Part shown: positions 2,617 to 37,376 of the stretch, in pieces
How the letters are laid out: every line of letters starts with the position of its first letter
Position numbering within the stretch: position 1 is the stretch's first letter
Source of the DNA: a virus
UHGV virus genome: UHGV-0029172
Strand: one strand, 5' to 3'
DNA: 37,376 nt
Program-made: the position numbers and the translations under genes
The notes under the pieces: model-generated
The model's database searches: none
Told to the model about the DNA's origin: nothing
Seen by the model: the letters and a program-made list of their open reading frames with translations, nothing else

Positions 2617-4869
2617 TTATAAATAGAGATAGTTCGGCGGTTCTCCTGTTTTCCCTAAAAGAAGAGCGCTACGCCCAGGAATATTGATATTTAGAGTTCC
2701 GCCTCTAAGCGTAAATACTTTACCAGGGGGGATAATTTTTCGGGTATTATTAATAATAATGTTAACGCTATTACTCCCCATGTTTTTGTATATTCCAGGT
2801 TGCAATTTGTTAGGCCAGGTACCTTCAACTTCTTCGTTTCCTTTATTTATTATAACTAGTCCATCATGAGGAGAGTGATTAATGTTCACAGAATCCCCAC
2901 GACTAAAGGCCAGAACGTTTTTAGTTGCAGATACACCCTCAAATGCGCTCCATATTCCTGCTTTATCTATATATAATGCGTGGAATTCATTGTAGAGCTG
3001 CTGATAGGTAGAGCAACCTTTATTAAGCTACGCCTCACCGCCGACACGCGTGGACCCATCATAATTTTTAATTTCAGTCGTTGATTTTAATACTTGGCCA
3101 TCCCAGTAAACTAAAGGCCTGCTGAACGGCAGAGCGGCTATATATGCCATTGCTAATTGTTCATCTTGTTGATGGTTAAATAGAAAGTCATTGAAAAGAT
3201 TACCATTGTTAGGAAAATCGTGGTTAATGTTAATCAATATCCGTCTTTCTGATGGGATACTTGAGATTGTGGAACCCGGTTTTGATGCAAGGGTTTGAAG
3301 ATCTCCACCAAATGAAAAGGCTTTTATCGTTTTCATGAGCAATGAAAAATCAATGGCGCTTAAATCATCTCTTTCATAAAGCAGTGATGACATTTGTTGT
3401 TCATCCAACTGACAAGTTACCAGATATTCCATGTAATTCATAACGGCTTTTTTATGATATTTTGGGTTAAATAAGTTAGTATTGTGTAACCGCTCATTAT
3501 AATTTTTAAGCGGTGGGGTTATTGATCTTTCTATTTGTTCATGTTTTGAGTGTTTTGCCGCATCATAACGTAAACCTCGTACGCCATATTTTCGCATTTC
3601 ACGAACGTATTGATTTTGCAACATAATAACCTGGTCACTTTTGGGTGTTGTTTTAGGCATTCCATTTAAACGCTTTTCTTTTAATGCATGGAGGTTTTCC
3701 CATTCATCCTTAGAGATGTTATCTTTACTTGCTTCGAAGTCTTTTGCAGTGAGATGTATATCTTCTGGATGGATTTGTTTACGTTCTTTTGTTACTGGAT
3801 CTTTAATGAATGGAATCAAAACCTGACCTTGCTAATAGCCAGGGATACCACCTTCTATATCTTTACTGATCTTCGCTCGTATATCAGCAGAGGGATAATC
3901 CAGGTCATTTTTACCACTACCCCCAATTCCCATAAAGTTAAAGGTATAATCAGGAATGATATCGATACCAAATTTTTTAGCATCTTTAACCAATGCAATA
4001 AAATCCTGCAAATCTCCCATTGGATTATGGATGGTACAAAGATCTTCGGGTTGATAAGCATGAAACCAGTAACCCTTTTCTTCTTCGGGAGTTTCTGGTC
4101 CGTCGGCGCGGAAAGTTGTCACTGGAGGGATTTGTATATACCCATAATGGCAACGTGCAAATTCAGACATATTTTCTCTGATCTGCTGGTAGGTGGCATT
4201 AAAAGCATGAAGAATCGCTTCGCCAGGTTTTTTGGGGGTGATGATTTCACATTGTGATTTCTGAACAGCAGTAAGAGATTTACGCTCAAGTGTTTGCCGT
4301 AGATGTTCTAGATTGATTAATATTTTAAATGTTTCTTGCTGTCCGGAAGGTGACGTCACGTTAATATTATATACATCGGCTGCCAGCTCATAGTCAGGAA
4401 TGTTAATAGCATATGCAACATATTTATCTTTTGGGGAAGGTTTGTCAGATATAATGTGGGTGAAATGTTCAGCACGACCATACTGATAAACACCGCTGTT
4501 ATCACCTCTTTCAATCATTGTATCTCGTTGATAAACCTATGTTTTTCTTTCTCCTATCCTGTCTGGCGCTGTAATGCTACGCTGTGCTGCTTTATTCAAC
4601 TCTCGGTAAGTTGTATCTGGAGAAAGGGAAATTTTATAATCGTTTTTTAACAGATCATTAATAACTTTTTCTGCGTGAAAAGTTGATATAATTTCTCTGT
4701 CTTTTAATCCTTGAGGGTAAACTCCACAAGAATTAATAATATTTGTTATACAGTTTAGATATTCTAATGTATTTAATTTGGAATTTAGATCCCCGTCAGT
4801 AATGTTCCATGATAACAATGTGGGGTTGTCGATAGGTAAATTTCTGGATCCTGGTTTTATAGAAAACAT
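2617..4869 (-). pseudogene. ygaQ: ygaQ-like gene disrupted by three in-frame amber (TAG) codons (at 3028-3030, 3832-3834, 4537-4539)
   Basis: Four track ORFs (4537..4869, 3832..4518, 3028..3819, 2617..2889) all lie in the same minus-strand frame (coordinates congruent mod 3); no other stop seen between 2890 and 3027; E. coli K-12 ygaQ is a multi-fragment pseudogene at this position next to csiD (recalled). Confidence 0.7.
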
Positions 4870-5428
4870 AATAAAGTTCCTCTAATGGTAGAGTAATATG
4901 ATGTATACGGAAGCATAAAAATGTTTAATTGTTGTGAAAGTAATTGCAAACAGATGTCCTACTTTTATCCAATATTTATATGGAAAAGGATAATGCTTAA
5001 ATCTGTTTTATTAATTATCGATGTGGTCTGGAGAGGCAACTGTCAAAAATCGCTCATACGAAACTAATGATTAGCAGAATAAGATCTATGAAAGAATATA
5101 TTGCTATACGAAGTTTATTTTTATGGAGTGAAAAGTAACAGATATCATAATGATGCGAAAACTCTTCAGCTAATGTAATAAAGTTATATTATTAGATACA
5201 AAATCATTACAAAGTATCATTGAATCGATGATAACTATAGATAGTGCTAATTATTAACATTTGCTTGTTGACTGCGAGTATCGACTTTGCGAATGGAGGC
5301 GGTGTCGGGTTTTATGTCGCGTGTAATCACGACCCAAGGTGAATGGGAACGCATAAAAATCTGTTATTTACATCATATGATCATCATGTTTATTGCGTGG
5401 TTTATAAGTATTGTTATTGCACACTCAA

Positions 5429-5507
5429 GGCCCTTTAGCTCAGTGGTTAGAGCAGGCGACTCATAATCGCTTGGTCGCTGGTTCAAGTCCAGCAGGGGGG
5501 GGCACCA
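5429..5507 (+). tRNA. tRNA-Ile(CAU) (ileX/ileY-type) copy at the attL junction; 5' 65 nt canonical, 3' acceptor strand replaced by prophage-derived AGGGGGGGGCACCA
   Basis: GGCCCTTTAGCTCAGTGGTTAGAGCAGGCGACTCATAATCGCTTGGTCGCTGGTTCAAGTCCAGC read directly; D-, anticodon- (CAT at 5462-5464) and T-arms intact and near-identical to recalled E. coli tRNA-Ile2; 3' end does not pair with 5' GGCCCTT. Confidence 0.7.
5459..5494. repeat. attL core (36-bp direct repeat ACTCATAATCGCTTGGTCGCTGGTTCAAGTCCAGCA)
   Basis: Identical 36-mer at 5459-5494 and 36696-36731; sequence diverges on both sides. Confidence 0.85.
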
Positions 5508-5534
5508 AATTTAAGCAGTAAATACATACAGTTA

Positions 5535-5559
5535 GGCCACTCTCGCGAGTGGCCTTTTT
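5535..5559 (+). terminator. intrinsic terminator (8-bp perfect stem GGCCACTC/GAGTGGCC, 4-nt loop, TTTTT)
   Basis: Read directly: ggccactctcgcgagtggccttttt downstream of the tRNA copy. Confidence 0.6.
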
Positions 5560-5625
5560 GTTACCTCGCTTTCGAGTGGCGATAGAATGGCGGTGGATTT
5601 TTTACCGCCACTTTGCTGAGGGCAT

Positions 5626-5647
5626 AAAAAAACCCGCACGCAGCGGG
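5626..5647 (-). terminator. intrinsic terminator downstream of B/ogr (stem CCCGC/GCGGG followed by T7 on minus strand)
   Basis: Plus strand aaaaaaacccgcacgcagcggg; on minus strand hairpin then UUUUUUU, 18 nt past the B stop. Confidence 0.55.
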
Positions 5648-5664
5648 CATTTAGCGGAAATTTA

Positions 5665-5883
5665 TCAGAGCCACAATGGCCGCTGACCACCGACAGTCGG
5701 GTGCGGCGGTGCCGGGTCAATGACTCCCGGAGTAACAATAAAGCGCTCTATCGTTTCCATTGTCATAAACGTGCAACTACAGTTGATATTCTGGCACTGG
5801 TGGTAGCGCACTTTCGTATTTTCTGTTAGATAGCGGCTTGTTCTCGCATGTGCGGCATGATGGCACTTCGGACAATGAAACAT
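5665..5883 (-). CDS. B: late gene transcriptional activator, Ogr/B zinc-finger family
   Basis: ORF 5665..5916 begins with TTG; start moved to ATG giving MFHCPKCHHAAHARTSRY...CQNINCSCTF (C4 zinc finger), 72 aa like P2 Ogr/186 B (recalled). Confidence 0.85.
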   Translation of the reverse strand: MFHCPKCHHAAHARTSRYLTENTKVRYHQCQNINCSCTFMTMETIERFIVTPGVIDPAPPHPTVGGQRPLWL

Positions 5884-5950
5884 AACCCACCCCATTATTC
5901 TCAATTCGTGAAACAATGATAATCATCAATTCACTTTTTGTGAATGCATT

Positions 5951-7120
5951 TTATTCATCATCCGATTCCGCGCTGTACTCAACATCAGAGAGTTTAACCT
6001 CAAGCTCTAAGCCCGTCGTGAAGCCGCCACCGTTCAGATTGTGAGTCACCTTACTGATTAACCATGATTGCTCGTCTATGACGCGCTTAAAGCCTGACAC
6101 GCGCACCGGTACCTCAGGGAATAAATCAGCCCTGCCAAGCGCCAGCGTAATTGAAAACTCCGCAACGCCTCGCTGCAGCTTATCCCACTTAGCCTGAGCG
6201 GCGCGCATCGCCTGCGCCTTAGAAGCGTAGACAGTCGTCAGCGCCAGCACGTTATCGGCCTCGCCGGCCATATACTCACCCTCGCGCGCCTCCGGCTCTT
6301 TTTTGGCCTTTGTCTTTTTGCTGACCGGCTTTGCTTTCGGGTGCTCCAGTGCGCGCAGGTGTTTCTCTTTTGGCTTACGTTTCAGCGTTACTTTCTGCTT
6401 TTGCGGTTTCGGGTCTTTGGTGTGCAACCATTTTGCCGTTACGCCGGTATAAGCCCCACGGTCAGCAATGGCAAACTGGTGACGGTCGCCATCGCTGCGG
6501 GTCAGCGTCATTTGCGGGACGGGTTTACCGCTGGCCGTCATCGCACTACCGGCTTTCAGAAACAGGAGTTTCCCCGCTTTCACTGACACCGCTGCCCCAT
6601 TGCGGTCAGCCAGCCGGGTCAGAAATACGGCGTCGGACTCCTGCGACTGGTCGATATGCGGCACCGGTATTTTTTTCAGTGAATCCGCGACACTGGCCGT
6701 CAGTTTATTGCGCTTTGCAATGGTGCTGACCAGCTCACCGAGGGTGGTGTCGTGCCACGATTCTTCACGCCGTGAATTGAGCGTTCCGCGAAAGTCTGCA
6801 CTACGCGCCCGGATGGTCAGGGTATCAGGCGCGCCCCGATGCTCAATCTCATCGACCGTGAAATCGCCCTTATTCAGAAGCGCGGAACCCTGCCACCCAA
6901 GCCACAGCGTGAGCACCGCCCCGCGCAGGGGTAACTCGACTTTGCCGTCAGTGTCGTCGAGCTCAATGTCGAGCTGGTCAGCCTCAAAACCCCGATTGTC
7001 GGTCATGGTAAGAGAAATCAGCCGGTCGCTAAAATTGCTGGTAATGTCCTGGCTGTTCAGTGTCAGCATAAACGCCGGTGCAAGGCTGGTACCGGCATCA
7101 ATAGTCATACCCGTAATCAT
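5951..7120 (-). CDS. D: tail protein D (late control D family)
   Basis: 389-aa ORF, position and size as P2 gpD; ATGA overlap with U stop. Confidence 0.85.
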   Translation of the reverse strand: MITGMTIDAGTSLAPAFMLTLNSQDITSNFSDRLISLTMTDNRGFEADQLDIELDDTDGKVELPLRGAVLTLWLGWQGSALLNKGDFTVDEIEHRGAPDTLTIRARSADFRGTLNSRREESWHDTTLGELVSTIAKRNKLTASVADSLKKIPVPHIDQSQESDAVFLTRLADRNGAAVSVKAGKLLFLKAGSAMTASGKPVPQMTLTRSDGDRHQFAIADRGAYTGVTAKWLHTKDPKPQKQKVTLKRKPKEKHLRALEHPKAKPVSKKTKAKKEPEAREGEYMAGEADNVLALTTVYASKAQAMRAAQAKWDKLQRGVAEFSITLALGRADLFPEVPVRVSGFKRVIDEQSWLISKVTHNLNGGGFTTGLELEVKLSDVEYSAESDDE

Positions 7121-7602
7121 GCTGTCAGCCCTCCGAGCGCACCCTGCAGCTTATCAGTGAGATTACCGGCAGAGCCGAGAAGCTCGCTGGCCTGCTTATT
7201 CAGGTCGCCAAACATTGCCGTCAGTGATTCGTCGACCCGTTTCAGCGAAAGGGTGAAATCAATCTTTCTGGCCGCGCCGTCGCTGAAAAACTCAGCATGC
7301 GTGGTCGACACCTTATCGACGATATACATCCCGAAGATATTGCCGGTTCCCTCAATAAGCGGCCATGCTCTGCCCTCGTCGGCCATCAGCTCAACAGCCA
7401 GCAGGGATATTCGACCGCCGGTAATAGCAGGGTAAAGCGTACCGGCAAGCTGGATCGAGTTCTCCCCCTCGCCGAGAAATTGATATGCAGGAGGTTTACC
7501 GACCCGGTCATTAGACGCCCAGCGATAATCTTTCGAGTGTTGCATCGACTGATAAGGCAGGGTGCGGCGTTCAAACACAAACATTCCAAGCGCAAGCATC
7601 AT
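7117..7602 (-). CDS. U: tail protein U
   Basis: 161-aa ORF between T and D as in P2. Confidence 0.85.
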   Translation of the reverse strand: MMLALGMFVFERRTLPYQSMQHSKDYRWASNDRVGKPPAYQFLGEGENSIQLAGTLYPAITGGRISLLAVELMADEGRAWPLIEGTGNIFGMYIVDKVSTTHAEFFSDGAARKIDFTLSLKRVDESLTAMFGDLNKQASELLGSAGNLTDKLQGALGGLTA

Positions 7603-7614
7603 CGTTTATTCCTC

Positions 7615-10056
7615 TCAGTCATGGCCCATACTGGCACGCTGACGCGCACGCTTTTCGCGCTCAATCTGTTCGAGCGTGTCGCGTAGCTGTCTGTCAAGCT
7701 GATGCCCCGGCGCAACACCTCCCGGCAGAGTGATGTTGTATTCGCTTTTGCTCTGGTCAATGTAAGAGCGCCCCGCCGGTGCGGTAACTGGCTGATAAGC
7801 CTGATAGCCGCCATATGTGTTGGTTGCCGGGATGTAGGAATTACCCTGCGTGGCGGCGTTGGTTTTGGCGGCAGTCTGGTCGAGGCTGTCCGATTCTTTG
7901 TTGATGATGCCGAGTTTTTCGAGAAGCCAGTCGACACCGCTGCGCAGCTTGTTAAAAACATTGAGCGGAGCCATCAAGGCAGAGGCCAGTGCCTGACCAA
8001 AAATAACGCCGACATTTTTGCAGCTATCAAGCGTCTCCTGCGTGGCCTTGACCGGTGCAATCAGGTCTTTAAACCATTGCCAGACGCCGCGCAGCTTCTC
8101 ACCGATGCCGTCAAAAATGGGTGCCAGTGGAGCGAACATTTCCCCGACCGGTGCAAAGGCGCTCATGATGCCCTCAATCACCCCCGAGAAAAATGCGCTG
8201 ATGGGCTCCCAATATTTGCGGATGAGTAGAGCCCCGGCCACAATCGCCGCACCGACGGCCACAATCGGCCAGGTAATCGCACCGAGCGCTGTCACAATGG
8301 CACTACCAGCGACAGTAAATACCGTACCCAACACGCCAGCAGCGGCGATAATGGCGTTAATCCCCATGACAACCGGCCACGCAACGAGACCAATGCCGCC
8401 GATGATACCAATCAGCGCCAGCGCGCCACCGGCGATGATGCCGATAGTTGTCGCCAGCCCTTTGTTTTTCTGGATCCAGCCGTTGAGCTTTAACACATAC
8501 TGCGTGGCGGTTTGGGTGAGTTTGCGCAGCGAGCCCTCTTGCTGGTCAAAAAGGTCGGTACCGACCGCCTCATATGCAGACTGAAACTCTTTAAAATCAC
8601 CGCCGAGGTTATCCTGCATAACCTTAACCAGTTCCTCGGTTTTGCCGTCTGACGCTTTCAGCGCGGCGGTTAGCTGGTCGAGCTTGCCGCTGGCCGCTGC
8701 AGCCATCAGCACATTAGCCGATGAGCTGGCTTCCTCGCCGAATATCGTTTTCATGTATTCGGCTTGCTGCCCCGTACCGAGATTGTTGCGCTTAAAGCTG
8801 GCCTGCATTTCTTTCAGGATGGTAAATATCGGGCGCGTATTGCCTTTGTTGTCTGAGGTTTTGACGCCCAGCTCTTTGAGGGCATCCCATGCCTTGCCGG
8901 TCGGAGCCTGTAGGCGACTTAATACTGCACGGCTCCCGGTACCGGCCATCGAGCCTGTGATTTTTGCATCATGCAGAGCACCCACTATTGCGGCGGTTTC
9001 TTCAATGCTGACACCTGCATTTTTTGCCACCGGCGCGGCATAGGTCATCGCATCACTGAGGCCGTCAAAGTCGGCGGCTGTTTTGTTCATCACCGTAGAC
9101 AGTACATCGCCAATATGCGAAACCTTGTCATTGGAAAGCTGGAACGCAGAGCGCATTCCCATCAGTAACGCGGCGTTTTCCTCCATTGTGCGACGGTTAG
9201 CAAGCGCCATATTCAGAGTGACTGGCGTTGTTGCCTGAATCGCAGCGGCATCACCACCACCTTTTGCGATAATAATCTGCGCACTGGCAGCATCGTCGGC
9301 AGAGGCGGCAGTATTGTCGCCGAGCTGGCGCGCCTGTTTGCGTAGCGCCTGCATTTCTGGCGACTGCTTATCGACTCCGAGCACAGCCTGCAGTTCGGAA
9401 TTTTTCTGCGCAAAGTCATAACCGGGCATCAGTAATTTAACCCCGGCCATCGTTCCCGCTGTCGCGATACCGACCCCGGCAGCACCGGCTGCGGCCATGT
9501 TACCGGCAAGCTCTTTACCTGATTTATATCGCTCTTTCACCCGGCTTAATTTCGCCTGCTGCGCACTGACGCGCGCCAGTGCCTCGCGCTGTCGATTAAG
9601 CTGCGCCGTCGTTTCGCTGATAGAGGTTTTGAGCCGACGCTCATCGGCAGACAGGGTGCGGGTATTAATACCGGCCTGCATCAGCTCGGAGCGCTGGCGC
9701 TGTACCGACGTTCTTAGGCTGTTGTATTTAGTCTGCAGCTCAGAGGCAGCACGCTTTGCCGCTTCGAGTGCCTGCGCCTGCGCGCGGGTCGGACTGGTGG
9801 TGTTTTTAAACTGCACGGCCAGTTCACCGGCCTCGCGTTTCGCTTTCTCAAGCGACTGACTGGTTACGGCCAGTTGCGCGCTTGCCTTACGAAAGCCATC
9901 GATTTTCGATGCCTGACCATTCAGGTCACGCAGCCCCTTTTGTGTGTCGCGAATATCCCCCGACAGGGATTTACTCGCGGTCTGGATAGATTTAAGCGGT
10001 CGGGTTGCCTGGTCTACCGCTTTCAGCAATACCTCAAGCCTCAAGTTATTACTCAT
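7615..10056 (-). CDS. T: tail tape measure protein
   Basis: 813-aa ORF, Ala/Gly-rich with coiled-coil and hydrophobic segments; ATG at 10054-10056 overlapped by E' stop. Confidence 0.9.
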   Translation of the reverse strand: MSNNLRLEVLLKAVDQATRPLKSIQTASKSLSGDIRDTQKGLRDLNGQASKIDGFRKASAQLAVTSQSLEKAKREAGELAVQFKNTTSPTRAQAQALEAAKRAASELQTKYNSLRTSVQRQRSELMQAGINTRTLSADERRLKTSISETTAQLNRQREALARVSAQQAKLSRVKERYKSGKELAGNMAAAGAAGVGIATAGTMAGVKLLMPGYDFAQKNSELQAVLGVDKQSPEMQALRKQARQLGDNTAASADDAASAQIIIAKGGGDAAAIQATTPVTLNMALANRRTMEENAALLMGMRSAFQLSNDKVSHIGDVLSTVMNKTAADFDGLSDAMTYAAPVAKNAGVSIEETAAIVGALHDAKITGSMAGTGSRAVLSRLQAPTGKAWDALKELGVKTSDNKGNTRPIFTILKEMQASFKRNNLGTGQQAEYMKTIFGEEASSSANVLMAAAASGKLDQLTAALKASDGKTEELVKVMQDNLGGDFKEFQSAYEAVGTDLFDQQEGSLRKLTQTATQYVLKLNGWIQKNKGLATTIGIIAGGALALIGIIGGIGLVAWPVVMGINAIIAAAGVLGTVFTVAGSAIVTALGAITWPIVAVGAAIVAGALLIRKYWEPISAFFSGVIEGIMSAFAPVGEMFAPLAPIFDGIGEKLRGVWQWFKDLIAPVKATQETLDSCKNVGVIFGQALASALMAPLNVFNKLRSGVDWLLEKLGIINKESDSLDQTAAKTNAATQGNSYIPATNTYGGYQAYQPVTAPAGRSYIDQSKSEYNITLPGGVAPGHQLDRQLRDTLEQIEREKRARQRASMGHD

Positions 10057-10536
10057 TGTGGTTTCCGCTACGCTGTAGCGCCTTTTTGCGCCATGTGATG
10101 AGCTCGGTCAGGCTCAGGGAGTACAGCTCTGATGGCGGCCAGTGGAATATCACTGCGATATCCGCCATCAGGTCATCGGTCGACAGGTCGGGCGGAAAAT
10201 CTACTCCACCGAAGCCGGTGACAAAAAACCAATCACCTTAGCGGCCAGCGATAACATGTCGGGCAGGTTCATCGCGGTTAGTTCCTGCGTGGTGAGCGCG
10301 GGATAGGTCATGCGGGGCAGTACTTTAATCAGCGCATCGACTTCGGACTGCGCCACCGCCGCCAGACTGACACCGCGCAGGGTACCGGCGTTCGGCTCAA
10401 TCAGGGTAACTTTATCAATCGTCTGACCGGCACGCTTAATCGGCTTGTCGAGGGTCACGACGTTCGGGTTTACAGTGTCAATTTGATTGCCATCCGTATC
10501 AACAAATTCAGCGGTTTTACGTGGTGCTTTTGCCAT
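10049..10536 (-). CDS. E': tail assembly chaperone E+E' (programmed -1 frameshift fusion)
   Basis: Slippery heptamer T_TTT_TTG on minus strand (plus 10222-10228); -1 frame stays open for 53 codons to TAA at 10049-10051, overlapping the T start. Confidence 0.65.
10201..10536 (-). CDS. E: tail assembly chaperone E
   Basis: 111-aa ORF upstream of T; ends ...GFLSPASVE; contains slippery TTTTTTG near 3' end. Confidence 0.8.
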   Translation of the reverse strand: MAKAPRKTAEFVDTDGNQIDTVNPNVVTLDKPIKRAGQTIDKVTLIEPNAGTLRGVSLAAVAQSEVDALIKVLPRMTYPALTTQELTAMNLPDMLSLAAKVIGFLSPASVE

Positions 10537-10598
10537 GATGTTTTTCTCTGCTCTAAAAGGAGTTAATAACCGGCCAGCAGTGCTGACCGGTCAGGGAA

Positions 10599-11117
10599 TT
10601 ACAGCCCGATTGCGCGGCGGTGCTGTTCCAGACGGTCAACACCGTTCACCTTCTCGACCATGTTGACGGTGTCGATTTCGATGACATCGCTACCATCAAT
10701 CGTGAGGCGATAATAGGTGCAAACGGTCGACAGTTTAGTCGAGGTGTTTTCACCCTGTTTATTTTCGCCGCCGTCGATTTCTTTGTGACGGCCACGCATG
10801 ACCACCTCGACCGCGATGATTTCGCCGGTGTCGTCGCGCTGGTAGGATCCAGCAAAACGCAGCGGCACGGCGTCAGCTCCCGGCGCGGCGTACTGCGCCC
10901 ACAGCGCCACATCGGGCAGACCACCGACAGACCACTCGACGGTGAGCGCATCGTCGTCGAGACCGAGGTCACTCGCCGCAGCACCATTCATGCCGCCGCC
11001 GCGATAGTTTTCGAGCTTGCGGGTCAGCTTCGGCAGCGTCACGGATTCAACAACGCCCATGTAGCTAAGGCCGTCGTTAAACATGTTCAAATATTTGAGT
11101 TTGCGGGGTAGTGCCAT
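10599..11117 (-). CDS. FII: tail tube protein FII
   Basis: 172-aa ORF, size/position as P2 FII. Confidence 0.85.
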   Translation of the reverse strand: MALPRKLKYLNMFNDGLSYMGVVESVTLPKLTRKLENYRGGGMNGAAASDLGLDDDALTVEWSVGGLPDVALWAQYAAPGADAVPLRFAGSYQRDDTGEIIAVEVVMRGRHKEIDGGENKQGENTSTKLSTVCTYYRLTIDGSDVIEIDTVNMVEKVNGVDRLEQHRRAIGL

Positions 11118-25971: not shown

Positions 25972-26850
25972 CTAATTATCTATCTCCGAACGAAGCAAAC
26001 TTACGTGTTTAGTATCGACAGGTAACGGCTTCGGAGCATGGTTTAATCCTTGATAAGATACATACGCGCTTGCTATTGATGCGACTGCGCTTGCCACCGC
26101 GACGATTACAGAAAGGATAGTAGCTATGCGCATTGTTCTCTGACCGGATTTGTCATCACTATAGCGCTGTTCATCTTTGTTAAAATGGCTAAGGGTATTC
26201 ATCGCTTTCCCTACAGGTTTGTATCCAGCTTGTGATTCCGAAATATCACCATTTTCCACAAGTGAATCTAGACAAAGACGTAATTCTTTTTTCATTCTTT
26301 CATTATCATCATGGTGAATCCATAGCTTACCAGCCACATCATCCATAATTAAATATTGACTAAAAGGTGCCTCACCTTCTTGCTCGCGATAAATTCTAAC
26401 TATAGAGGCTAAGACCGCCATTGTATCTGTGATTTCTTTTTTCTGTTGACGATACAAATAACTTTCACGACTAAACTTATTATTTTGATAATCTGAATCT
26501 CGCCTAAATCTAAACTCTCGCAGCCACGTCAAATCATTGAGAGACTGAAACTTTAGCTCATGTGCGTGGTAATAATAAATACCTGAGAAAGATTCAGGAA
26601 CTAGTTCATCAGGAACAAGCTCTGAATCTATATTAAATCGACTTTCCTCAGAATCCCATCTCCTTGCGCGAATCACCCCATTAACAAATCTATCAAAAAG
26701 ATACTCACCACCATCACCAGCCTTGATATAAACAGAATACATATCATAATGGATTGCATTTTCATACATTAAACTAATGCGTCCGTTATCTGGAGTTCTT
26801 TTCTTTTCGAACTTTTTTAAATGCTTAATAATACTATTGCCTGCTAACAT
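25972..26850 (-). CDS. tail-anchored membrane protein of unknown function (C-terminal TM helix), cargo gene 2 of variable-region module
   Basis: ORF 25972..26952 (GTG start, no RBS); start placed at ATG 26848-26850 with AGGTGG RBS; C-terminal hydrophobic MRIATILSVIVAVASAVASIASAYVSY; AT-rich by eye. Confidence 0.6.
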   Translation of the reverse strand: MLAGNSIIKHLKKFEKKRTPDNGRISLMYENAIHYDMYSVYIKAGDGGEYLFDRFVNGVIRARRWDSEESRFNIDSELVPDELVPESFSGIYYYHAHELKFQSLNDLTWLREFRFRRDSDYQNNKFSRESYLYRQQKKEITDTMAVLASIVRIYREQEGEAPFSQYLIMDDVAGKLWIHHDDNERMKKELRLCLDSLVENGDISESQAGYKPVGKAMNTLSHFNKDEQRYSDDKSGQRTMRIATILSVIVAVASAVASIASAYVSYQGLNHAPKPLPVDTKHVSLLRSEIDN

Positions 26851-26969
26851 TAGAACCACCTGAATGTATTTAGCATTAAATAAAATCTTGCCTTTACTAG
26901 CGCCTCGCATTGCTCGTTGTTCAACCCTGCCAGCACTGAAAACAAGTTTCACCGCTGGCAGCGTTTATA

Positions 26970-27701
26970 TTAATTATCGAGTATTGAAACGACCTCACCC
27001 GTTCGCACATCTACACGCGCCGCTACGGTCTGTTTGACCACCGCACCATAAGCATTTGTGCCGCGAAACGTAGTTTTTACAATGGCATGTGGGTCTTTAT
27101 TCAAAATCAGATGATAGACCGTTGAGACGTGCTTATAAGAGGAATCATCATTCATGCTGGCTTTTATCTGCTTTTCTAACGGGCGATAAGAACCATCCCA
27201 ACCGCTAAAATTATCCTTAAATGCATCGAGATTGATTTTATCATTCAGCGATTTTGGATCCTTCTCGAAGTCGTTGAAACACCAACCCAACACATCACCG
27301 AGCTTTAACGCATCATCTTTAGTAAAAGTGTACTCACTCATACAGGCATAAAAAGCGTCAGCAGAGCTGGCCGGTACACTTTTGAAATCAACATAATCTT
27401 TAACGATATCGTGCCGGGTTTCTTTCGGCTCATTGCGATATTCTTTAAGAGTTTTATCAGCATACTCAAACGTTGGTGTAACCGGTGCCGCTTCAACCGC
27501 CGGTATGTCAGTTTTTGCTACAGGCTGACTTTTTTCAGTCGGCCATAAGATTGACCCAAGGACGCTCAGCGCCAGACAACCGCCGAAATAAACTGCACTG
27601 GAGCGTTTACGATTCGGCATCCGAACCAGCGACGGCTTGATGAGACCAACGATAAAAGCAATAAAGAGCGCCAGAGATAAAAATGCAATTACGGTATCCA
27701 T
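26970..27701 (-). CDS. membrane protein of unknown function (two N-terminal TM helices, about 190-aa C-terminal domain), cargo gene 1
   Basis: 243-aa ORF, ATG at 27699-27701 with AAGGA RBS; TM1 VIAFLSLALFIAFIVGLI, basic loop, TM2 VYFGGCLALSVLGSILW; AT-rich by eye. Confidence 0.65.
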   Translation of the reverse strand: MDTVIAFLSLALFIAFIVGLIKPSLVRMPNRKRSSAVYFGGCLALSVLGSILWPTEKSQPVAKTDIPAVEAAPVTPTFEYADKTLKEYRNEPKETRHDIVKDYVDFKSVPASSADAFYACMSEYTFTKDDALKLGDVLGWCFNDFEKDPKSLNDKINLDAFKDNFSGWDGSYRPLEKQIKASMNDDSSYKHVSTVYHLILNKDPHAIVKTTFRGTNAYGAVVKQTVAARVDVRTGEVVSILDN

Positions 27702-27783: not shown

Positions 27784-28197
27784 CTAACGCCAGCTCTCAT
27801 CTTCCCATACTTCCTGAAGGATACTATCAAGCGCTTCGCGGTCTGAATCCTTATCGAACCCCATCAGCTCGACGCCGGTCATGGACCCCTTTTTAACAGT
27901 AACCCGCGTTGACGGGAAAACAGACTGTATTCTCCTAGTCAATTCGCATTGAAAAGCTTCAATTACCGGCTGGCCTATTTTTTGGTCTTTATCTAACGTG
28001 ATATTTACTTTCACATTGCCAACCTTTGCAAAAGTTTCATCTACAGGCGGCGCGGAAAAAACAACAGAAAAATTATTGTTTTTCATCAGGTTGCCCTGTG
28101 CTATCTCCGCTATAAGATTCAATGCGATTTCACGGTCTCTTTCCTGGCAAGCACCTTCAGCCGTAAGGCGCGCAATCATTTCGACCCGTTCAATCAT
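27784..28197 (-). CDS. tum: Tum-like SOS-inducible antirepressor with DinI-like C-terminal domain
   Basis: C-terminal ...ELTRRIQSVFPSTRVTVKKGSMTGVELMGF...ILQEVWEDESW resembles DinI (recalled); start set to first ATG downstream of the LexA box (ORF track start is GTG at 28266, which would contain the operator); start uncertain. Confidence 0.65.
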   Translation of the reverse strand: MIERVEMIARLTAEGACQERDREIALNLIAEIAQGNLMKNNNFSVVFSAPPVDETFAKVGNVKVNITLDKDQKIGQPVIEAFQCELTRRIQSVFPSTRVTVKKGSMTGVELMGFDKDSDREALDSILQEVWEDESWR

Positions 28198-28244
28198 AAC
28201 GTGCTCGTTTAGTTCTCTATCCACACAACCCCCACTACGAGATA

Positions 28245-28260
28245 CTGTATAAATACACAG
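28245..28260. promoter_or_regulatory. LexA (SOS) box CTGTATAAATACACAG
   Basis: Perfect CTGT-N8-ACAG palindrome read directly, about 50 bp upstream of the tum-like ATG. Confidence 0.75.
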
Positions 28261-28341
28261 TATCACGTATCGGTAAAAGGTGTGAAGAAAAAATCACGGT
28301 TAAATACACTGTATGTACATGATAAGGATGAATATTAACGA

Positions 28342-34212: not shown

Positions 34213-35225
34213 TGACTGTCCGTAAAAATCCGGCTGGCGGTTGGATTTGTGAGCTCTACCCAAACGGTGCAAAAGGCAAACGTATCAGAAAGAAATTCGC
34301 TACTAAGGGCGAGGCTCTGGCGTTTGAACAGTACACCGTTCAAAACCCGTGGCAGGAAGAAAAGGAAGACAGGCGCACGTTAAAAGAGCTGGTTGATTCA
34401 TGGTATAGCGCTCATGGCATTACACTGAAAGACGGCTTGAAACGCCAGTTAGCCATGCACCATGCTTTTGAGTGTATGGGCGAACCACTCGCACGCGATT
34501 TCGATGCGCAGATGTTTTCCCGTTACCGAGAAAAACGGTTAAAAGGTGAGTATGCCCGTTCAAACAGAGTGAAAGAGGTATCACCTCGCACGCTTAATCT
34601 TGAACTGGCCTACTTCCGGGCAGTGTTCAATGAGCTAAACCGCCTCGGAGAATGGAAGGGCGAAAACCCACTGAAAAACATGCGCCCATTCCGCACAGAA
34701 GAAATAGAAATGGCCTGGCTAACTCACGACCAGATTTCGCAACTGCTCGGAGAGTGTAAACGGCATGACCACCCTGATTTAGAAACTGTGGTCAGAATCT
34801 GTCTCGCTACTGGCGCCCGGTGGTCTGAGGCTGAGAGTCTGAAAAAAAGCCAGCTTGCGAAATACAAAATCACCTACACCAACACAAAAGGTAAAAAAAA
34901 CCGTACTGTTCCCATCAGCAAAGAGCTCTACGAGTCACTACCTGATGATAAAAAAGGTCGATTGTTTAGTGATTGTTATGGCGCATTTCGGTCTGCACTG
35001 GAAAGAACAGGCATCGAACTACCGGCAGGACAACTTACCCACGTTTTGCGCCACACCTTTGCCAGTCACTTTATGATGAATGGTGGCAATATTTTAGTCT
35101 TGCAACGCGTACTCGGCCATACCGACATCAAAATGACGATGCGATATGCGCATTTTGCTCCTGACCATCTTGAAGATGCAGTAAGACTTAATCCATTGAA
35201 CAAGACCTCTGCGGTAATGGAGTAG
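34212..35225 (+). CDS. int: tyrosine integrase (P2/186 family)
   Basis: 337 aa from ATG at 34212; C-terminal catalytic region with HVLRHTFASHF...LGHTDIKMTMRYAHF (R-H-R-Y signature). Confidence 0.9.
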   Translation: MTVRKNPAGGWICELYPNGAKGKRIRKKFATKGEALAFEQYTVQNPWQEEKEDRRTLKELVDSWYSAHGITLKDGLKRQLAMHHAFECMGEPLARDFDAQMFSRYREKRLKGEYARSNRVKEVSPRTLNLELAYFRAVFNELNRLGEWKGENPLKNMRPFRTEEIEMAWLTHDQISQLLGECKRHDHPDLETVVRICLATGARWSEAESLKKSQLAKYKITYTNTKGKKNRTVPISKELYESLPDDKKGRLFSDCYGAFRSALERTGIELPAGQLTHVLRHTFASHFMMNGGNILVLQRVLGHTDIKMTMRYAHFAPDHLEDAVRLNPLNKTSAVME

Positions 35226-35244
35226 CGGTAATTAAAAATTATAT

Positions 35245-35263
35245 GCGCACTGATATAGTGCGC
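35245..35263. terminator. hairpin between convergent int and cargo operon (GCGCAC/GTGCGC, 7-nt loop), likely bidirectional terminator
   Basis: Read directly; A/T-rich flanks on both sides. Confidence 0.45.
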
Positions 35264-35321
35264 TTATGACCTTGAACATTTAATAAGGTTACAAAAGTGA
35301 CAATGTCTATGCTATAAAATA

Positions 35322-35645
35322 TCAAACCTCATTGTATGCACCACATCCATTACAACGAATGACAATGTTATGAATATTAACTTTTGGTACCCCAATAACA
35401 AGTTGAGATTTACACCCCCCACATAGCAACGCTAATCCGACCTCATAACCTGTTATAGCAACGGTGCCCTCTCCTTGATAAATAAAAACAGTCCTTGTAT
35501 CCGGGTCCGGCTCAGGAATAACCTCTAGAGTTATCGTCTCCTTAATCTCCGGAACTTCAGGTCTCTTAATTTTTGGTTCATGGCACTCTTTGAAAAGTAA
35601 GCCAGACTCACAGGGGCAAAGTTCATTTGGATCAATCTTAGCCAT
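35322..35645 (-). CDS. small zinc-binding protein: N-terminal SEC-C-like motif (CPCESGLLFKECH) plus C-terminal CxxC...CxxC zinc ribbon
   Basis: 107-aa ORF, ATG 2 nt after the upstream gene stop (operon); cysteine motifs read directly; AT-rich. Confidence 0.6.
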   Translation of the reverse strand: MAKIDPNELCPCESGLLFKECHEPKIKRPEVPEIKETITLEVIPEPDPDTRTVFIYQGEGTVAITGYEVGLALLCGGCKSQLVIGVPKVNIHNIVIRCNGCGAYNEV

Positions 35646-35647
35646 AT

Positions 35648-36493
35648 TTACTCTCTCACAATGGACAATGGCAAATTTGGATCAATATACCGCCCGATAT
35701 CAGGAACATTCAATTTCATTCGAGTAAGCATAATTAGTAGATAAGTAAAAAAACGGCCAAAAGATTGGTCTTCCATACCCTCTTTAACTATACGTAAAAC
35801 AATCTCATCATTTTCCTCACTATTTACCTGTCGCTTATGCGCCGTTAAAACCAAACTAACAAACTCATCTGTATCTAGGAGTAAATCTTTTTCCCCTTTT
35901 GTTAGATTAACTTTTTCATAACGAAGCACACCTTTGCCAAGAACACATATTAGATTACAAAAATAATTCACATCATGTACAGCCTTGCTGTGCGCCATCC
36001 AATTTTCTTTTAGAGAATCCAGAGAATTACCAGAAATATTAAATCCAAAAACAATACCAAATGGCCTAGATGCCCTATGAACTGTTGCGTATTCTCTAGT
36101 AGCAATCACCCCTAAATCTCTCGGCGCTAGTTTTTTGAATGAGGTTATTTTATTGGCTGCATCATCAAACTCACTTTTTGATAGAGTTGATTTAACTTCG
36201 ATAATACCATATACCCCTTCAACAGGAAGGATTGATGTTTTCCCCGCATAAAGTACTGGGCAATTAACGGCATCATAAATTATGATATCAATAGCATGGG
36301 AGCGTAAACCTTCTTTTGTAATTACCTCTCCTTTGGTCACGCCATATCTTTTTGGCAAATGAGTTTTGAGAAAATCCATTAAAAACTCCTCTCGATTCTC
36401 ACCTTTATCGCCACTATGATGTATAAAACCGGATTCTTTGAATCGAGCCAACATTGTAGCTTCTATTGAATTAAATAATTGATTTAAATCCAT
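35648..36493 (-). CDS. putative PD-(D/E)xK nuclease-like protein, unknown family
   Basis: 281-aa ORF with GGAGG RBS; candidate nuclease core HAIDIIIYD...(about 25 aa)...GIIEVK (D...ExK spacing typical of restriction-endonuclease-like fold); assignment from motif only. Confidence 0.5.
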   Translation of the reverse strand: MDLNQLFNSIEATMLARFKESGFIHHSGDKGENREEFLMDFLKTHLPKRYGVTKGEVITKEGLRSHAIDIIIYDAVNCPVLYAGKTSILPVEGVYGIIEVKSTLSKSEFDDAANKITSFKKLAPRDLGVIATREYATVHRASRPFGIVFGFNISGNSLDSLKENWMAHSKAVHDVNYFCNLICVLGKGVLRYEKVNLTKGEKDLLLDTDEFVSLVLTAHKRQVNSEENDEIVLRIVKEGMEDQSFGRFFTYLLIMLTRMKLNVPDIGRYIDPNLPLSIVRE

Positions 36494-36695
36494 ATATTAC
36501 CTCCCCTAATGCATGTCTTTGATGATACACCTTACTTACACTTTTGTAAGTTGCAAGCATCACAGCGTTGATTGATGGTAATGGCGATAAAGTGGCGGCG
36601 GAAATGGCTAAGAATGGGTAATCATTGGCAAATGATGGCAACTTATGTCAATGATAAATAACGCAAACTATTGATTCTCGGTTGTTCAAGTAGGA

Positions 36696-36741
36696 ACTCA
36701 TAATCGCTTGGTCGCTGGTTCAAGTCCAGCAAGGGCCACCA
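36696..36741 (+). repeat. attR: 36-bp core repeat plus native tRNA 3' end (T-arm, acceptor AAGGGCC, discriminator A, CCA)
   Basis: ACTCATAATCGCTTGGTCGCTGGTTCAAGTCCAGCAAGGGCCACCA; acceptor AAGGGCC is perfectly complementary to the 5' GGCCCTT at 5429-5435. Confidence 0.85.
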
Positions 36742-37376
36742 AATCATTATTTACGTATCAGGAAGAGTTAAGGGTACAAGGGGTACTCGATGGCGGTCTA
36801 TATTTCATGACTAACGCCATTTCAAGGAAGAAGTGCGGTGGGTGGTTTCGAATGAGGGCTGGTGTTTTGGTACGTGGCACGCCACTGCAATGTATTTATC
36901 CATCAGTACTCATTCAAAAGTACCTGGAAAAAATGCCTGCTATGCCAAGCGGGCAAATTGCTTACATGTGGAATTAAGTAATTAACGATAAAGCCAGAGT
37001 ATTATCATTTATTATACCCCTTCATTTAATCAGGTTAATTACTCAAATCACTGAACTATTCTCTGTTCGCTCACTGATGATAAGTGAGTACCACAACCAA
37101 TGTATGTAGAACAATGCCGTAGAGTAAGGATGAAATGTCTCTGCCACGCCTTAAACATCTACTACTGACCAGAACACCCGCCGCAGGCAGATGAGTTTTG
37201 TGAGCGTTACAGGAGCGTGGCTATGCTCATTAACCAACGCTATTGAGATATAAATTTCTAACACTTGAAAAACGATTTTCACTAATAAATTATAACGGTT
37301 TTTTGGTAATGACTCCAACTTATTGATAGTGTTTTATGTTCAGATAATGCCCGATGACTTTGTCATGCAGCTCCAC

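Follow-up and report, generated by a model that had tools for sequence, protein, structure and literature searches.

NucC is the textbook example of a nuclease that is kept silent until a cyclic-nucleotide alarm is raised. It is the effector of type III CBASS and of some type III CRISPR-Cas systems, and the canonical enzyme is activated by cyclic tri-AMP (cA3) from a CD-NTase or from Cas10. It forms a homotrimer which hexamerises on ligand binding. Among the residues associated with the cA3-bound state are Thr226/Val227, which contact the ligand, and the gate-loop latch His136/Tyr141. By itself canonical NucC is inactive and needs its activator, and its catalytic motif has the form ID-x30-EAK (Asp73, Glu104, Lys106) (bioRxiv 10.1101/694703). 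A further precedent is Damona, an anti-phage system which consists of one DUF6602 gene and comes from the chromosomal integron of Vibrio cholerae (Darracq et al., bioRxiv 10.1101/2024.07.02.601686). SEC-C metal-binding motifs are found in SecA, where the metal-binding domain takes up Zn or Fe and mediates docking to SecB and to ribosomes (bioRxiv 10.1101/613315), and also in Rugutis, an Abi-like protein of lactococcal plasmids with an N-terminal SEC-C, validated anti-phage activity and an otherwise novel fold (PMC11381338; PMC13064643). Defence by single-gene DUF6602 proteins is thus already known from Damona; what is new here is a two-gene variant in which the nuclease (A) is accompanied by a small metal-binding partner (B). 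It raises the question of how a NucC-type nuclease is controlled where there is no nucleotide signal and a small metalloprotein stands in place of the cyclase.

The window, that is, the whole stretch of 37,376 nucleotides of UHGV virus genome UHGV-0029172, carries a phage-186-like prophage, and the cassette sits in its integrase-to-attachment-site slot. Since int stops at position 35225 and homology to the attP arm of phage 186 (arm sites plus a tRNA fragment) begins near 36583 and runs to about 36745, the intervening cargo lies within the prophage. The partner attL is the tRNA(CAT)/ileY gene at 5430–5501, and attR is the prophage boundary and lies outside the module. The original prediction of an AT-rich insert of some 1.4 kb between int and attR agrees well with the approximately 1.36 kb found here, the G+C content of which is 0.35–0.39, against about 0.45–0.50 in the adjoining early and int region and 0.55–0.61 in the late genes. 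It was mistaken in placing attP of 186-type phages immediately beyond the 3' end of int, for phage 186 has the small Orf69 (252 bp) between the two. Orf69 is all that occupies this slot in phage 186, and the cargo replaces it in this prophage. The int–att interval has been published as a minor defence hotspot of P2-like phages, and the present finding adds evidence that it is a genuine cargo site in P2/186-like phages. An Rfam scan of the cargo region gave no match.

Table 1. Features of the cargo region and its boundary (window coordinates).
Feature	Position	Strand	Basis or remark
Intrinsic-terminator-like GC hairpin GCGCACTATATCAGTGCGC followed by T-tract ATATAATTTT	35245..35263	-	separates B and int, whose 3' ends converge
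Gene B, 107 aa	35322..35645	-	ORF; SEC-C motif and C4 ribbon
A/B junction TAAatATG	35643..35650	-	stop of A and start of B 2 nt apart
Gene A, 281 aa	35648..36493	-	ORF; predicted NucC-fold PD-(D/E)xK endonuclease (DUF6602)
Shine-Dalgarno GGGGAGG, 6 nt 5' of the A ATG	36500..36506	-	read from sequence
Promoter-like site CTTACA, 17-nt spacer, TATCAT, within the cargo upstream of A	36522..36550	-	consensus match only
Whole AT-rich cargo segment	35226..36582	.	composition, 186 attP alignment, 186 annotation
attR: 186-type attP left arm (Int arm sites, Apl/IHF region) and truncated tRNA-Ile(CAU) 3' fragment	36583..36745	+	

Genes A and B are both transcribed on the strand opposite int, and the two ORFs and their junction are exactly as first described. 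The spacing of the junction is consistent with translational coupling; a GAGAG lies 5' of the B start, and a similarly close junction recurs in distant homologues (L004, L007, L009 and L012). The promoter-like site upstream of A must be taken as weak evidence, because the region has no more such sites than would be expected from shuffled sequence. Terminator-like hairpins number two, against 0.7 expected in shuffles. That neither gene is a chance ORF follows from the conservation of their lengths (281–282 aa for A; 105–113 aa for B) across several phyla.

Gp A was suspected from its sequence to possess a PD-(D/E)xK core, with the Asp in HAIDIIIYD and the Glu and Lys in GIIEVK, and the profile and structure searches suggested at the time have borne this out. 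It scores 104.2 bits against Pfam DUF6602 [PF20247; gathering cut-off 27; E = 4.2e-30] over residues 21–122, and matches the PADLOC profiles for PD_DExK [1.6e-40] and for the CBASS NucC effector [6.6e-32 and 6.9e-25]. The only sequence matches in the PDB are to NucC, at 19–24% identity. An AlphaFold2 model (pLDDT 83.7) was compared with the PDB using Foldseek, and the best 14 matches were all NucC [E = 1e-16 to 6e-14; target-normalised TM 0.75–0.79], with structural alignments spanning 274–285 columns; the next PDB match had an E value of 0.04. As judged from the model, A is a full-length NucC-fold PD-(D/E)xK nuclease and a member of the NucC/DUF6602 superfamily. Its D69, E99 and K101 align to NucC D73, E104 and K106 and are invariant in 38 homologues, so that the motif common to A and NucC reads ID-x(29-30)-E(A/V)K; DNase activity may be predicted from this kinship. 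Further features of A are a family-specific C-terminal region of about 90 residues and a conserved Arg-rich hairpin (residues 128–139, TREYxTVHRxSRPFG) which has low pLDDT and is located where the NucC gate loop would be expected. The single-gene DUF6602 relatives recovered were only 25–38% identical to A and lacked its C-terminal region, and the extra domains of long DUF6602 proteins gave no match in Pfam. Certain proteins of 240–260 aa from the deep search were considered as canonical NucC and rejected; they carry the YDAxNCP motif of A and not DRQYSP.

Does A respond to cA3? The adenine-stacking Tyr81 of NucC aligns to N77 of A, a position occupied by N, D, H, K or S within the family. The phosphate-binding Arg53 aligns to R49, in an LPKRY motif identical to that of E. 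coli NucC; the residue is Arg in most members, and the position varies (R/K/Q) and falls outside the invariant columns. The sequence alignment of A with NucC ends at about residue 130–190, short of the Thr226/Val227 contacts. Neither CD-NTase nor Cas10 is encoded in the window, and no cyclase or Cas10 was seen in the Pfam-annotated flanks (6–8 kb per side) of about a dozen distinct contexts. Based upon the replacement of the stacking tyrosine, the variability at R49 and the lack of a linked cyclase or Cas10, A probably does not depend upon cA3, as far as its sequence and neighbours indicate. A counterweight is that R49 in LPKRY is mostly kept and that an Arg-rich hairpin stands at the gate-loop position. 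Membership in CBASS was rejected, there being no CD-NTase in the window or in related contexts; gp B does match the PADLOC CBASS E2 models, weakly (E ~6e-4) and only within its SEC-C motif.

The partner had been described as combining an N-terminal SEC-C-like motif with a C-terminal CxxC...CxxC ribbon, and both features are evident. Residues 7–24 match SEC-C [PF02810; 31.4 bits, gathering cut-off 20.4; E = 1.7e-7], and 25 diverse sequences all keep the ligands C10, C12, C21 and H22. The linker motif IPEPDP (I43 to P48) is invariant, as is R51, while the cysteines of the C4 ribbon (C75, C78, C98 and C101) are invariant or nearly so. No HTH, RHH or AbrB domain and no recognisable DNA- or modified-base-binding domain was found in B with Pfam, and fold comparison gave neither a structural match nor a known inhibitor fold. 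Since the protein is acidic (pI 4.96) and some variants are longer by a C-terminal domain of about 110–130 aa (these extensions having no match in Pfam), the sequence of B suggests a modular protein partner more than a DNA-binding protein. An Ogr/Delta-like zinc-finger regulator was also considered and rejected on the lack of a Pfam hit and the acidity of the protein.

In the close family B is found directly downstream of A on the same strand at every one of 29 loci (20 distinct pairs from at least six phyla), as against none of 13 loci of distant DUF6602 proteins. The identities of A and B co-vary (Pearson r = 0.85), B diverging 1.36 times faster. No A-only locus occurs among the 29; a B-only remnant is present in E. 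coli LR-71-1, where A has been replaced by IS1. The apparent loss of B at L011 proved to be an artefact of gene calling, its DNA being identical to that of L012. No natural A–B fusion was seen among 282 A hits, 167 B hits and the best 150 representatives. The module, of about 1.3 kb, retains an identity of at least 60% among several phyla. It is nevertheless rare, with a single occurrence among 5,426 complete genomes of E. coli and 17 loci among some 100,000 species genomes, and conclusions drawn from guilt by association therefore rest upon some 15 independent contexts. Phage 186 lacks the pair, and none of the 50,697 deposited phage genomes carries it. The initial statement that it could not be matched to a named system holds for the pair, for which PADLOC v2 has no model, and fails for A, which falls in the NucC/DUF6602 superfamily and has a precedent in Damona. 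Such a gap in PADLOC is what one would expect for a novel system; it also means that there is no curated support.

These contexts are defence-like, and in them the pair moves as one unit. A search for synteny of the int–attR cargo, as originally proposed, placed the pair in the int–att slot of further 186-like phages, so that this slot is now represented, in both orientations, by the window, L032 and Providencia. In a Pseudomonas P2/HP1-like prophage the cassette occupies a slot adjacent to the tail fibre, and in Citrobacter koseri it has been kept beside a decayed prophage. In Vibrio vulnificus one integron cassette, with attC-type repeats at its ends, holds both genes. On an Acinetobacter baumannii plasmid the cassette directly follows an Abi-family gene near VapBC, in Vibrio it adjoins AbiJ or HEPN genes, and in one island it is accompanied by PIN, DpnII/MboI, GmrSD and HNH genes between copies of IS110. 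The suggestion that a nuclease and zinc-binding protein at a prophage end form a moron or defence arrangement thus receives support from context (the int–att hotspot, other prophage slots, the integron, the Abi plasmid and the defence island). What had been named as counting against the original prediction was the lack of a nuclease fold, homology to a restriction-modification or toxin-antitoxin component with a different mechanism, or conservation as phage structural or regulatory genes, and none of the three was seen.

We consider it probable that A and B constitute a mobile, self-contained and cA3-independent immunity cassette of the NucC family, acting by abortive infection or superinfection exclusion, regulated by B and carried by the prophage as lysogenic-conversion cargo. 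A would be the effector, a NucC-family PD-(D/E)xK DNA endonuclease, and B its dedicated regulatory subunit, presumably in physical contact with it and standing in for the nucleotide signal. Once active, A would degrade DNA non-specifically, as NucC does; phage replication would stop and the infected cell would be lost, which is the sense in which we suppose the pair to be anti-phage. The regulation by B might run in either of two directions. B may sense a cue of infection and license the assembly or activation of A, a role as sensor or activator which we favour, if at something short of even chances. Somewhat less likely, B may act as an antitoxin-like inhibitor, silencing A up to the point at which B is removed or titrated by infection. 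That B does something else again we think unlikely.

A more specific version of the sensor role may be put forward, although as a whole it is hardly likely. Here a protein would replace the cyclic-oligonucleotide messenger: B, by way of its acidic IPEPDP motif and/or the SEC-C knuckle, would attach to A at the Arg-rich gate-loop and three-fold pocket region (the cA3 site in NucC) and so set the assembly of trimers into hexamers, and a zinc/redox- or phage-protein-dependent switch in B would drive the DNase with no enzymatic signalling step. If this is true, A would be the first effector of the NucC type to take a protein as its allosteric ligand, and the SEC-C motifs of several defence proteins would gain a function as sensors.

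Several other explanations have to be set against a B-regulated immunity cassette. One might regard the pair as a toxin-immunity (addiction) module which stabilises the mobile element, A being a constitutive DNase toxin and B its acidic, co-translated inhibitor. Colicin DNases with their Im proteins, barnase/barstar and toxin-first type II TA pairs would be the analogues. The nuclease-first order and tight coupling would ensure that B is present whenever A is made; A has never been found alone at the 29 loci, yet B survives alone in LR-71-1; and both the small plasmid and the integron array which carry the cassette are TA-rich settings. Canonical NucC, however, needs an activator, and A retains a gate-loop-like element; B has none of the DNA-binding or autoregulatory domains usual in antitoxins; and the C. 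koseri copy has outlasted the decay of its prophage, which suggests benefit to the host over addiction to the element. TA and Abi are, moreover, not mutually exclusive, and this reading overlaps with that in which B holds A inactive until infection. As a distinct explanation we judge it rather unlikely. More improbable is a restriction-type nuclease, either type II-like without a methylase or modification-dependent and type IV-like, which would act upon incoming DNA with B as specificity or control subunit. One homologue is indeed flanked by GmrSD and DpnII/MboI-type genes and an HNH gene, but neither the window nor the related contexts show a linked methyltransferase, B is acidic and without a recognisable domain for binding DNA or modified bases, and the fold of A matches restriction enzymes some 15 orders of magnitude less well than it does NucC. 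Type II restriction-modification proper was rejected for want of an adjacent methyltransferase in the same contexts.

The full-length NucC fold, the LPKRY motif with its phosphate-binding Arg identical to E. coli NucC and the conserved Arg-rich hairpin at the gate-loop position would also fit an orphan effector which eavesdrops upon cA3 signals from the CBASS or type III CRISPR systems of host or invader, with B as an accessory. We find this very doubtful: Asn or a variable residue stands at the Tyr81 position and R49 is not kept throughout the family, the cassette moves by itself among hosts from at least six phyla with no linked cyclase, and the strict co-inheritance and co-divergence with B would be left unexplained. 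The location of the cassette in a prophage, and of homologues in other P2-like prophages, might lastly suggest a function in the phage life cycle, such as the breakdown of host DNA, or recombination, while the 186-like phage grows lytically. This is extremely unlikely, given that the pair is missing from phage 186 and the deposited phage genomes, is equipped with a promoter-like site and a terminator-like hairpin of its own on the opposite strand to int, occurs also in non-phage settings (plasmid, integron and chromosomal islands), and differs in slot and orientation from phage to phage. For the first of these reasons, and for its presence on plasmids and integrons, the assignment of A and B to phage structural or regulatory genes was rejected.

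Only about 1.3 kb in length, conserved, and mobile by way of prophage hotspots, integron cassettes and plasmids, the cassette makes a compact candidate for a new defence system. It adds to the evidence that SEC-C motifs recur in immune proteins and that the DUF6602 superfamily (about 7,300 clusters at 50% identity) consists mostly of cyclase-independent forms. A and B together might also prove to be a protein-triggered DNase of use as a tool.

Of the systems to which the cassette may be compared, the colicin DNase/Im, barnase/barstar and HigBA-type pairs resemble it by general analogy, in that a nuclease gene is followed by one for a small acidic protein and the two are strictly co-inherited; they show no kinship in sequence or fold to A and B, and B has two metal sites. 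Residues 7–24 of B match the SEC-C of SecA, YecA and YchJ with the CxC...CH ligands invariant. The motif is N-terminal in a protein of 107 aa and is followed by an unrelated ribbon, and no link to secretion is evident. Rugutis shares with B the N-terminal SEC-C metal-binding motif, a likeness over about 20 residues; unlike B it is a single protein of 359 aa without a nuclease partner. NucC [PDB 6p7o, 6p7p, 6q1h, 6uxf and 7zgv] is the sole significant PDB match to A and resembles it over the full length of the fold, with an N-terminal helix and the LPKRY motif in common and, in A, a hairpin where the gate loop would be expected. A differs in some 40 extra residues, a family-specific C-terminal third and an Asn for Tyr81; it has no CD-NTase/HORMA/TRIP13 or Cas10 partner, and has instead an obligate SEC-C/zinc-ribbon partner gene which NucC operons lack. 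Damona, like A, belongs to DUF6602; it has matches to the profiles for Cas PD_DExK and for CBASS small endonucleases, and acts with no cyclase. Damona is found in integron cassettes and prophages, and the A–B pair too occurs as an integron cassette in V. vulnificus. By its description Damona is nonetheless set apart as a single gene, whereas A is always accompanied by B (29/29 loci) and co-evolves with it.

The prophage in the window is phage-186-like (Eganvirus-type), integrated at the Escherichia coli ileY tRNA and adjoining glaH(csiD)-lhgO. Since int ends at 35225 and attR begins at 36583, positions 35226–36582 are cargo within the prophage. The original prediction of an extra insert, of about 1.1–1.4 kb, beyond int is correct, but its premise that attP "immediately" follows int in such phages is slightly too strong because the 252-bp Orf69 fills this slot, alone, in the 186 annotation. 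The two predicted ORFs, gene A (nuclease) and gene B (SEC-C motif and zinc ribbon), were recovered exactly where they had been placed. Only two bases separate the TAA of A from the ATG of B (TAAatATG); GAGAG lies directly upstream of the B start, and a strong Shine-Dalgarno sequence (GGGGAGG) 6 nt ahead of the ATG of A. The segment is AT-rich, with a GC content of 0.35–0.39 versus about 0.45–0.50 in the adjoining phage DNA and 0.55–0.61 in the late genes.

Features of the A-B cassette and of the prophage that carries it (window positions)
Feature	Position	Strand	Description
Gene A	35648–36493	−	281-aa ORF
Gene B	35322–35645	−	107-aa ORF
Sigma-70-like site	36550→36522		CTTACA, 17 nt, TATCAT upstream of A; consensus match, such matches near the cassette being no more numerous than chance
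GC hairpin and T-tract	35263→35245		Between convergent ends of B and int; terminator-like sites 2 versus 0.7 expected, a modest excess over chance
attL	5430–5501		tRNA(CAT), then 186-type right-arm DNA
attR	36583–36745		Near base-for-base alignment with 186 attP left arm plus tRNA fragment
AT-rich patch in prophage	25972–27701	−	GC about 0.38; ORFs of 326 and 243 aa
DinI-like gene	27784–28266
AT-rich trio	3028–4869	−	GC about 0.36; ORFs of 263, 228 and 110 aa

At the attL tRNA(CAT)/ileY (5430–5510) the 3′ acceptor strand is irregular, reading CAGCAGGGGGGGGCACCA with a run of eight G versus the 186-type CAGCAGGGGCCACCA, and the tRNA fragment at attR ends in AAGGGCCACCA, complementary to the tRNA 5′ GGCCCTT. 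This is either a defective hybrid tRNA or a homopolymer sequencing error. The second AT-rich patch of the prophage, flanked by the portal/terminase block and by the DinI-like gene and replication gene A, sits at the counterpart of the old/tin locus, the main defence hotspot in P2; the two ORFs of the patch gave no Pfam or PADLOC family match and are a candidate second cargo or defence pair. The trio is not part of the prophage and sits in the interval from glaH(csiD) to the ileY tRNA. Its ORFs have no significant family matches, and the trio may represent an earlier islet that used this tRNA hotspot too.

On sequence and modelled structure, protein A is a NucC-family nuclease. Residues 21–122 constitute a DUF6602 domain (Pfam, E = 4e-30), and PADLOC matched the protein to a CRISPR-associated PD_DExK model (1.6e-40) and to two CBASS NucC effector models (6.6e-32 and 6.9e-25). 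A sequence search of the PDB returned NucC proteins only (Serratia 7zgv, 1.8e-17; also V. metoecus, E. coli and P. aeruginosa). An AlphaFold2 model built from an alignment of 38 homologues was confident (pLDDT 83.7, pTM 0.84), and in Foldseek searches of the PDB its top 14 matches were all NucC (E 1e-16 to 6e-14; target-normalised TM 0.75–0.79, 17–24% identity). As these extend over about 275 aligned columns, the likeness involves the whole protein, beyond the nuclease core.

In NucC, the catalytic motif ID-x30-EAK comprises D73/E104/K106; cA3 (cyclic tri-AMP) is contacted by R53, Y81, which stacks on each adenine, and T226/V227; a gate loop is latched by H136/Y141; and ligand binding converts trimers to hexamers (Lau et al., bioRxiv 10.1101/694703). 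In HMM alignments the D, E and K guessed earlier to be catalytic, D69/E99/K101, are the exact equivalents of the NucC triad, and all three are invariant among the 38 homologues. R53 corresponds to R49 of A within an LPKRY motif identical in both, but this position varies across the A family (R/K/Q), and Y81 corresponds to N77 (N/D/H/K/S across the family). The cA3 pocket appears to be partly lost. At the gate-loop position is a strongly conserved Arg-rich hairpin of low pLDDT (residues 128–139, TREYxTVHRxSRPFG).

For protein B, the predicted SEC-C-like N-terminus and C-terminal CxxC...CxxC ribbon both held. Residues 7–24 match the SEC-C motif over the Pfam threshold, and among 25 diverse homologues its C10, C12, C21 and H22 are invariant, as are ribbon residues C75, C78, C98 and C101, likewise N105, and L40, I43, E45, P46, P48 and R51 of an IPEPDP segment in which P44 and D47 are kept in most. 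B is acidic (computed pI 4.96). Its matches to CBASS E2 models are weak (PADLOC, E about 6e-4) and confined to the SEC-C motif. The SEC-C domain of SecA is a Zn- or Fe-binding module that docks onto SecB and ribosomes (bioRxiv 10.1101/613315). A few variants of B (homologues P0378, P0381 and P0391, and 8001–8651 of locus L047) carry an extra C-terminal domain of 110–130 aa, rich in Cys, Phe and Gly, without a Pfam match, which may be repeat-like.

A and B form one evolutionary unit, obligately linked and co-diverging. More than 280 A homologues (281–282 aa, at least 59% identity) occur in Enterobacteria, Vibrio, Pseudomonas, Comamonas, Acidobacteria, Methylobacter and Thermodesulfobacteriota; nearly all of 167 B homologues have 105–113 aa. 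B lies immediately downstream of close-family A on the same strand at 29/29 fetched loci (20 distinct pairs), which also cover Fusobacteriaceae, the actinobacterium Serinicoccus, Chloroflexi, Gallionella and Acidovorax, and is absent at 13/13 fetched loci whose DUF6602 protein is more distant (25–38% identity). Over 190 comparisons the pairwise identities of A and B correlate (Pearson 0.85, Spearman 0.72), B diverging about 1.36 times faster and being the less conserved partner in 98%. The chromosomal integron of V. vulnificus has attC-type repeats at 5839–5988 and 7157–7302 of the locus and none between, so that A and B constitute a single integron cassette. Among 1.84 billion representatives, profile searching identified 7,312 clusters of DUF6602 proteins, of which just about a dozen match A at full length; the others have in common with it only the N-terminal ~190 residues and possess other, unannotated C-termini. 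The C-terminal ~90 residues of A thus belong to the B-linked clade alone.

The pair travels on mobile elements and lies in defence-related surroundings. Where it occupies the int-att slot of a 186-like prophage, it is convergent with int in the window, E. coli G47-1 and a viral contig, and co-oriented in a diverged phage (Int 87%, A 81%, B 62%) and in Providencia; the two orientations point to independent insertions. Elsewhere it adjoins the tail-fibre genes in a P2/HP1-like prophage of Pseudomonas. On a mobilisable 15-kb plasmid of Acinetobacter baumannii it immediately follows an Abi-family gene, with VapBC nearby, and in Vibrio its neighbour is either AbiJ or a HEPN protein. It is also present in an element with D5 primase, RadC and ResIII helicase and, with B in its long form, in the IS110-flanked L047 island with PIN, DpnII/MboI-type, GmrSD and HNH genes. 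Many Citrobacter koseri assemblies (at least 23 contigs, 97% identical to the window) have it beside a heavily decayed P2-like remnant (truncated int, portal fragment, Ogr/Delta), which suggests cargo retained after phage loss. The Providencia prophage has an added bPH_3/SHOCT-domain gene between cI and int (4656–5238 of its locus), found neither in the window nor in 186, which looks like one more small insertion of cargo, here into the lysogeny operon. In a P2-like IMG/VR contig, a single-gene DUF6602 protein (9992–10849; 286 aa, 26% identity, without B) is inserted among tail and baseplate genes; different DUF6602 clades thus occupy different P2 moron slots.

The full pair was found in 1/5,426 complete E. 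coli genomes (G47-1, same site as the window) and in 0/50,697 deposited phage genomes. In a second strain, LR-71-1, part of this prophage end survives (4094–6283 of its locus): int is truncated, B is intact (97.7% DNA identity), and A has given way to IS1, copies of which lie on both sides.

The most economical reading is that A-B is a compact immunity module. A would be its effector, a NucC-type DNase, and B, a small metalloprotein dedicated to it, would have taken over its control from a cyclic-trinucleotide signal. We infer the activity of A, an anti-phage phenotype, a physical A-B interaction and the direction of control. B may well be a sensor/activator, at a little under even chances, because NucC scaffolds are inactive by default and because B evolves faster than A and accepts extra domains. 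More tentatively, it could be an inhibitor or antitoxin-like partner, since the gene for the acidic partner follows that for the nuclease, and since no A-only locus was seen, yet a B-only remnant is present.

A pure addiction module is less well supported than the immunity module. The same applies to A as an orphan cA3 effector; neither CD-NTase nor Cas10, the makers of cA3, was found in the window or in the Pfam-annotated flanks of the cassette contexts. It applies also to A as a restriction-type enzyme, the first non-NucC Foldseek match being BbvCI (E = 0.04), and as a phage life-cycle nuclease.

PADLOC v2 contains neither the obligate SEC-C/zinc-ribbon partner, nor the A-specific C-terminal region, nor the two-gene architecture, and none of the three was found in the literature searched. 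There, DUF6602 is named in a single paper, and no paper connects NucC to a protein bearing a SEC-C motif in the setting of defence. Rugutis, a validated Abi-like protein of a lactococcal plasmid, has an N-terminal SEC-C motif, as does B. The nuclease family of A is already known, and a single-gene relative, Damona, from the Vibrio cholerae chromosomal integron, is a validated defence system and a precedent for a cyclase-less DUF6602 protein which protects against phage. The general logic of A-B is already explained by the NucC/Damona precedent.
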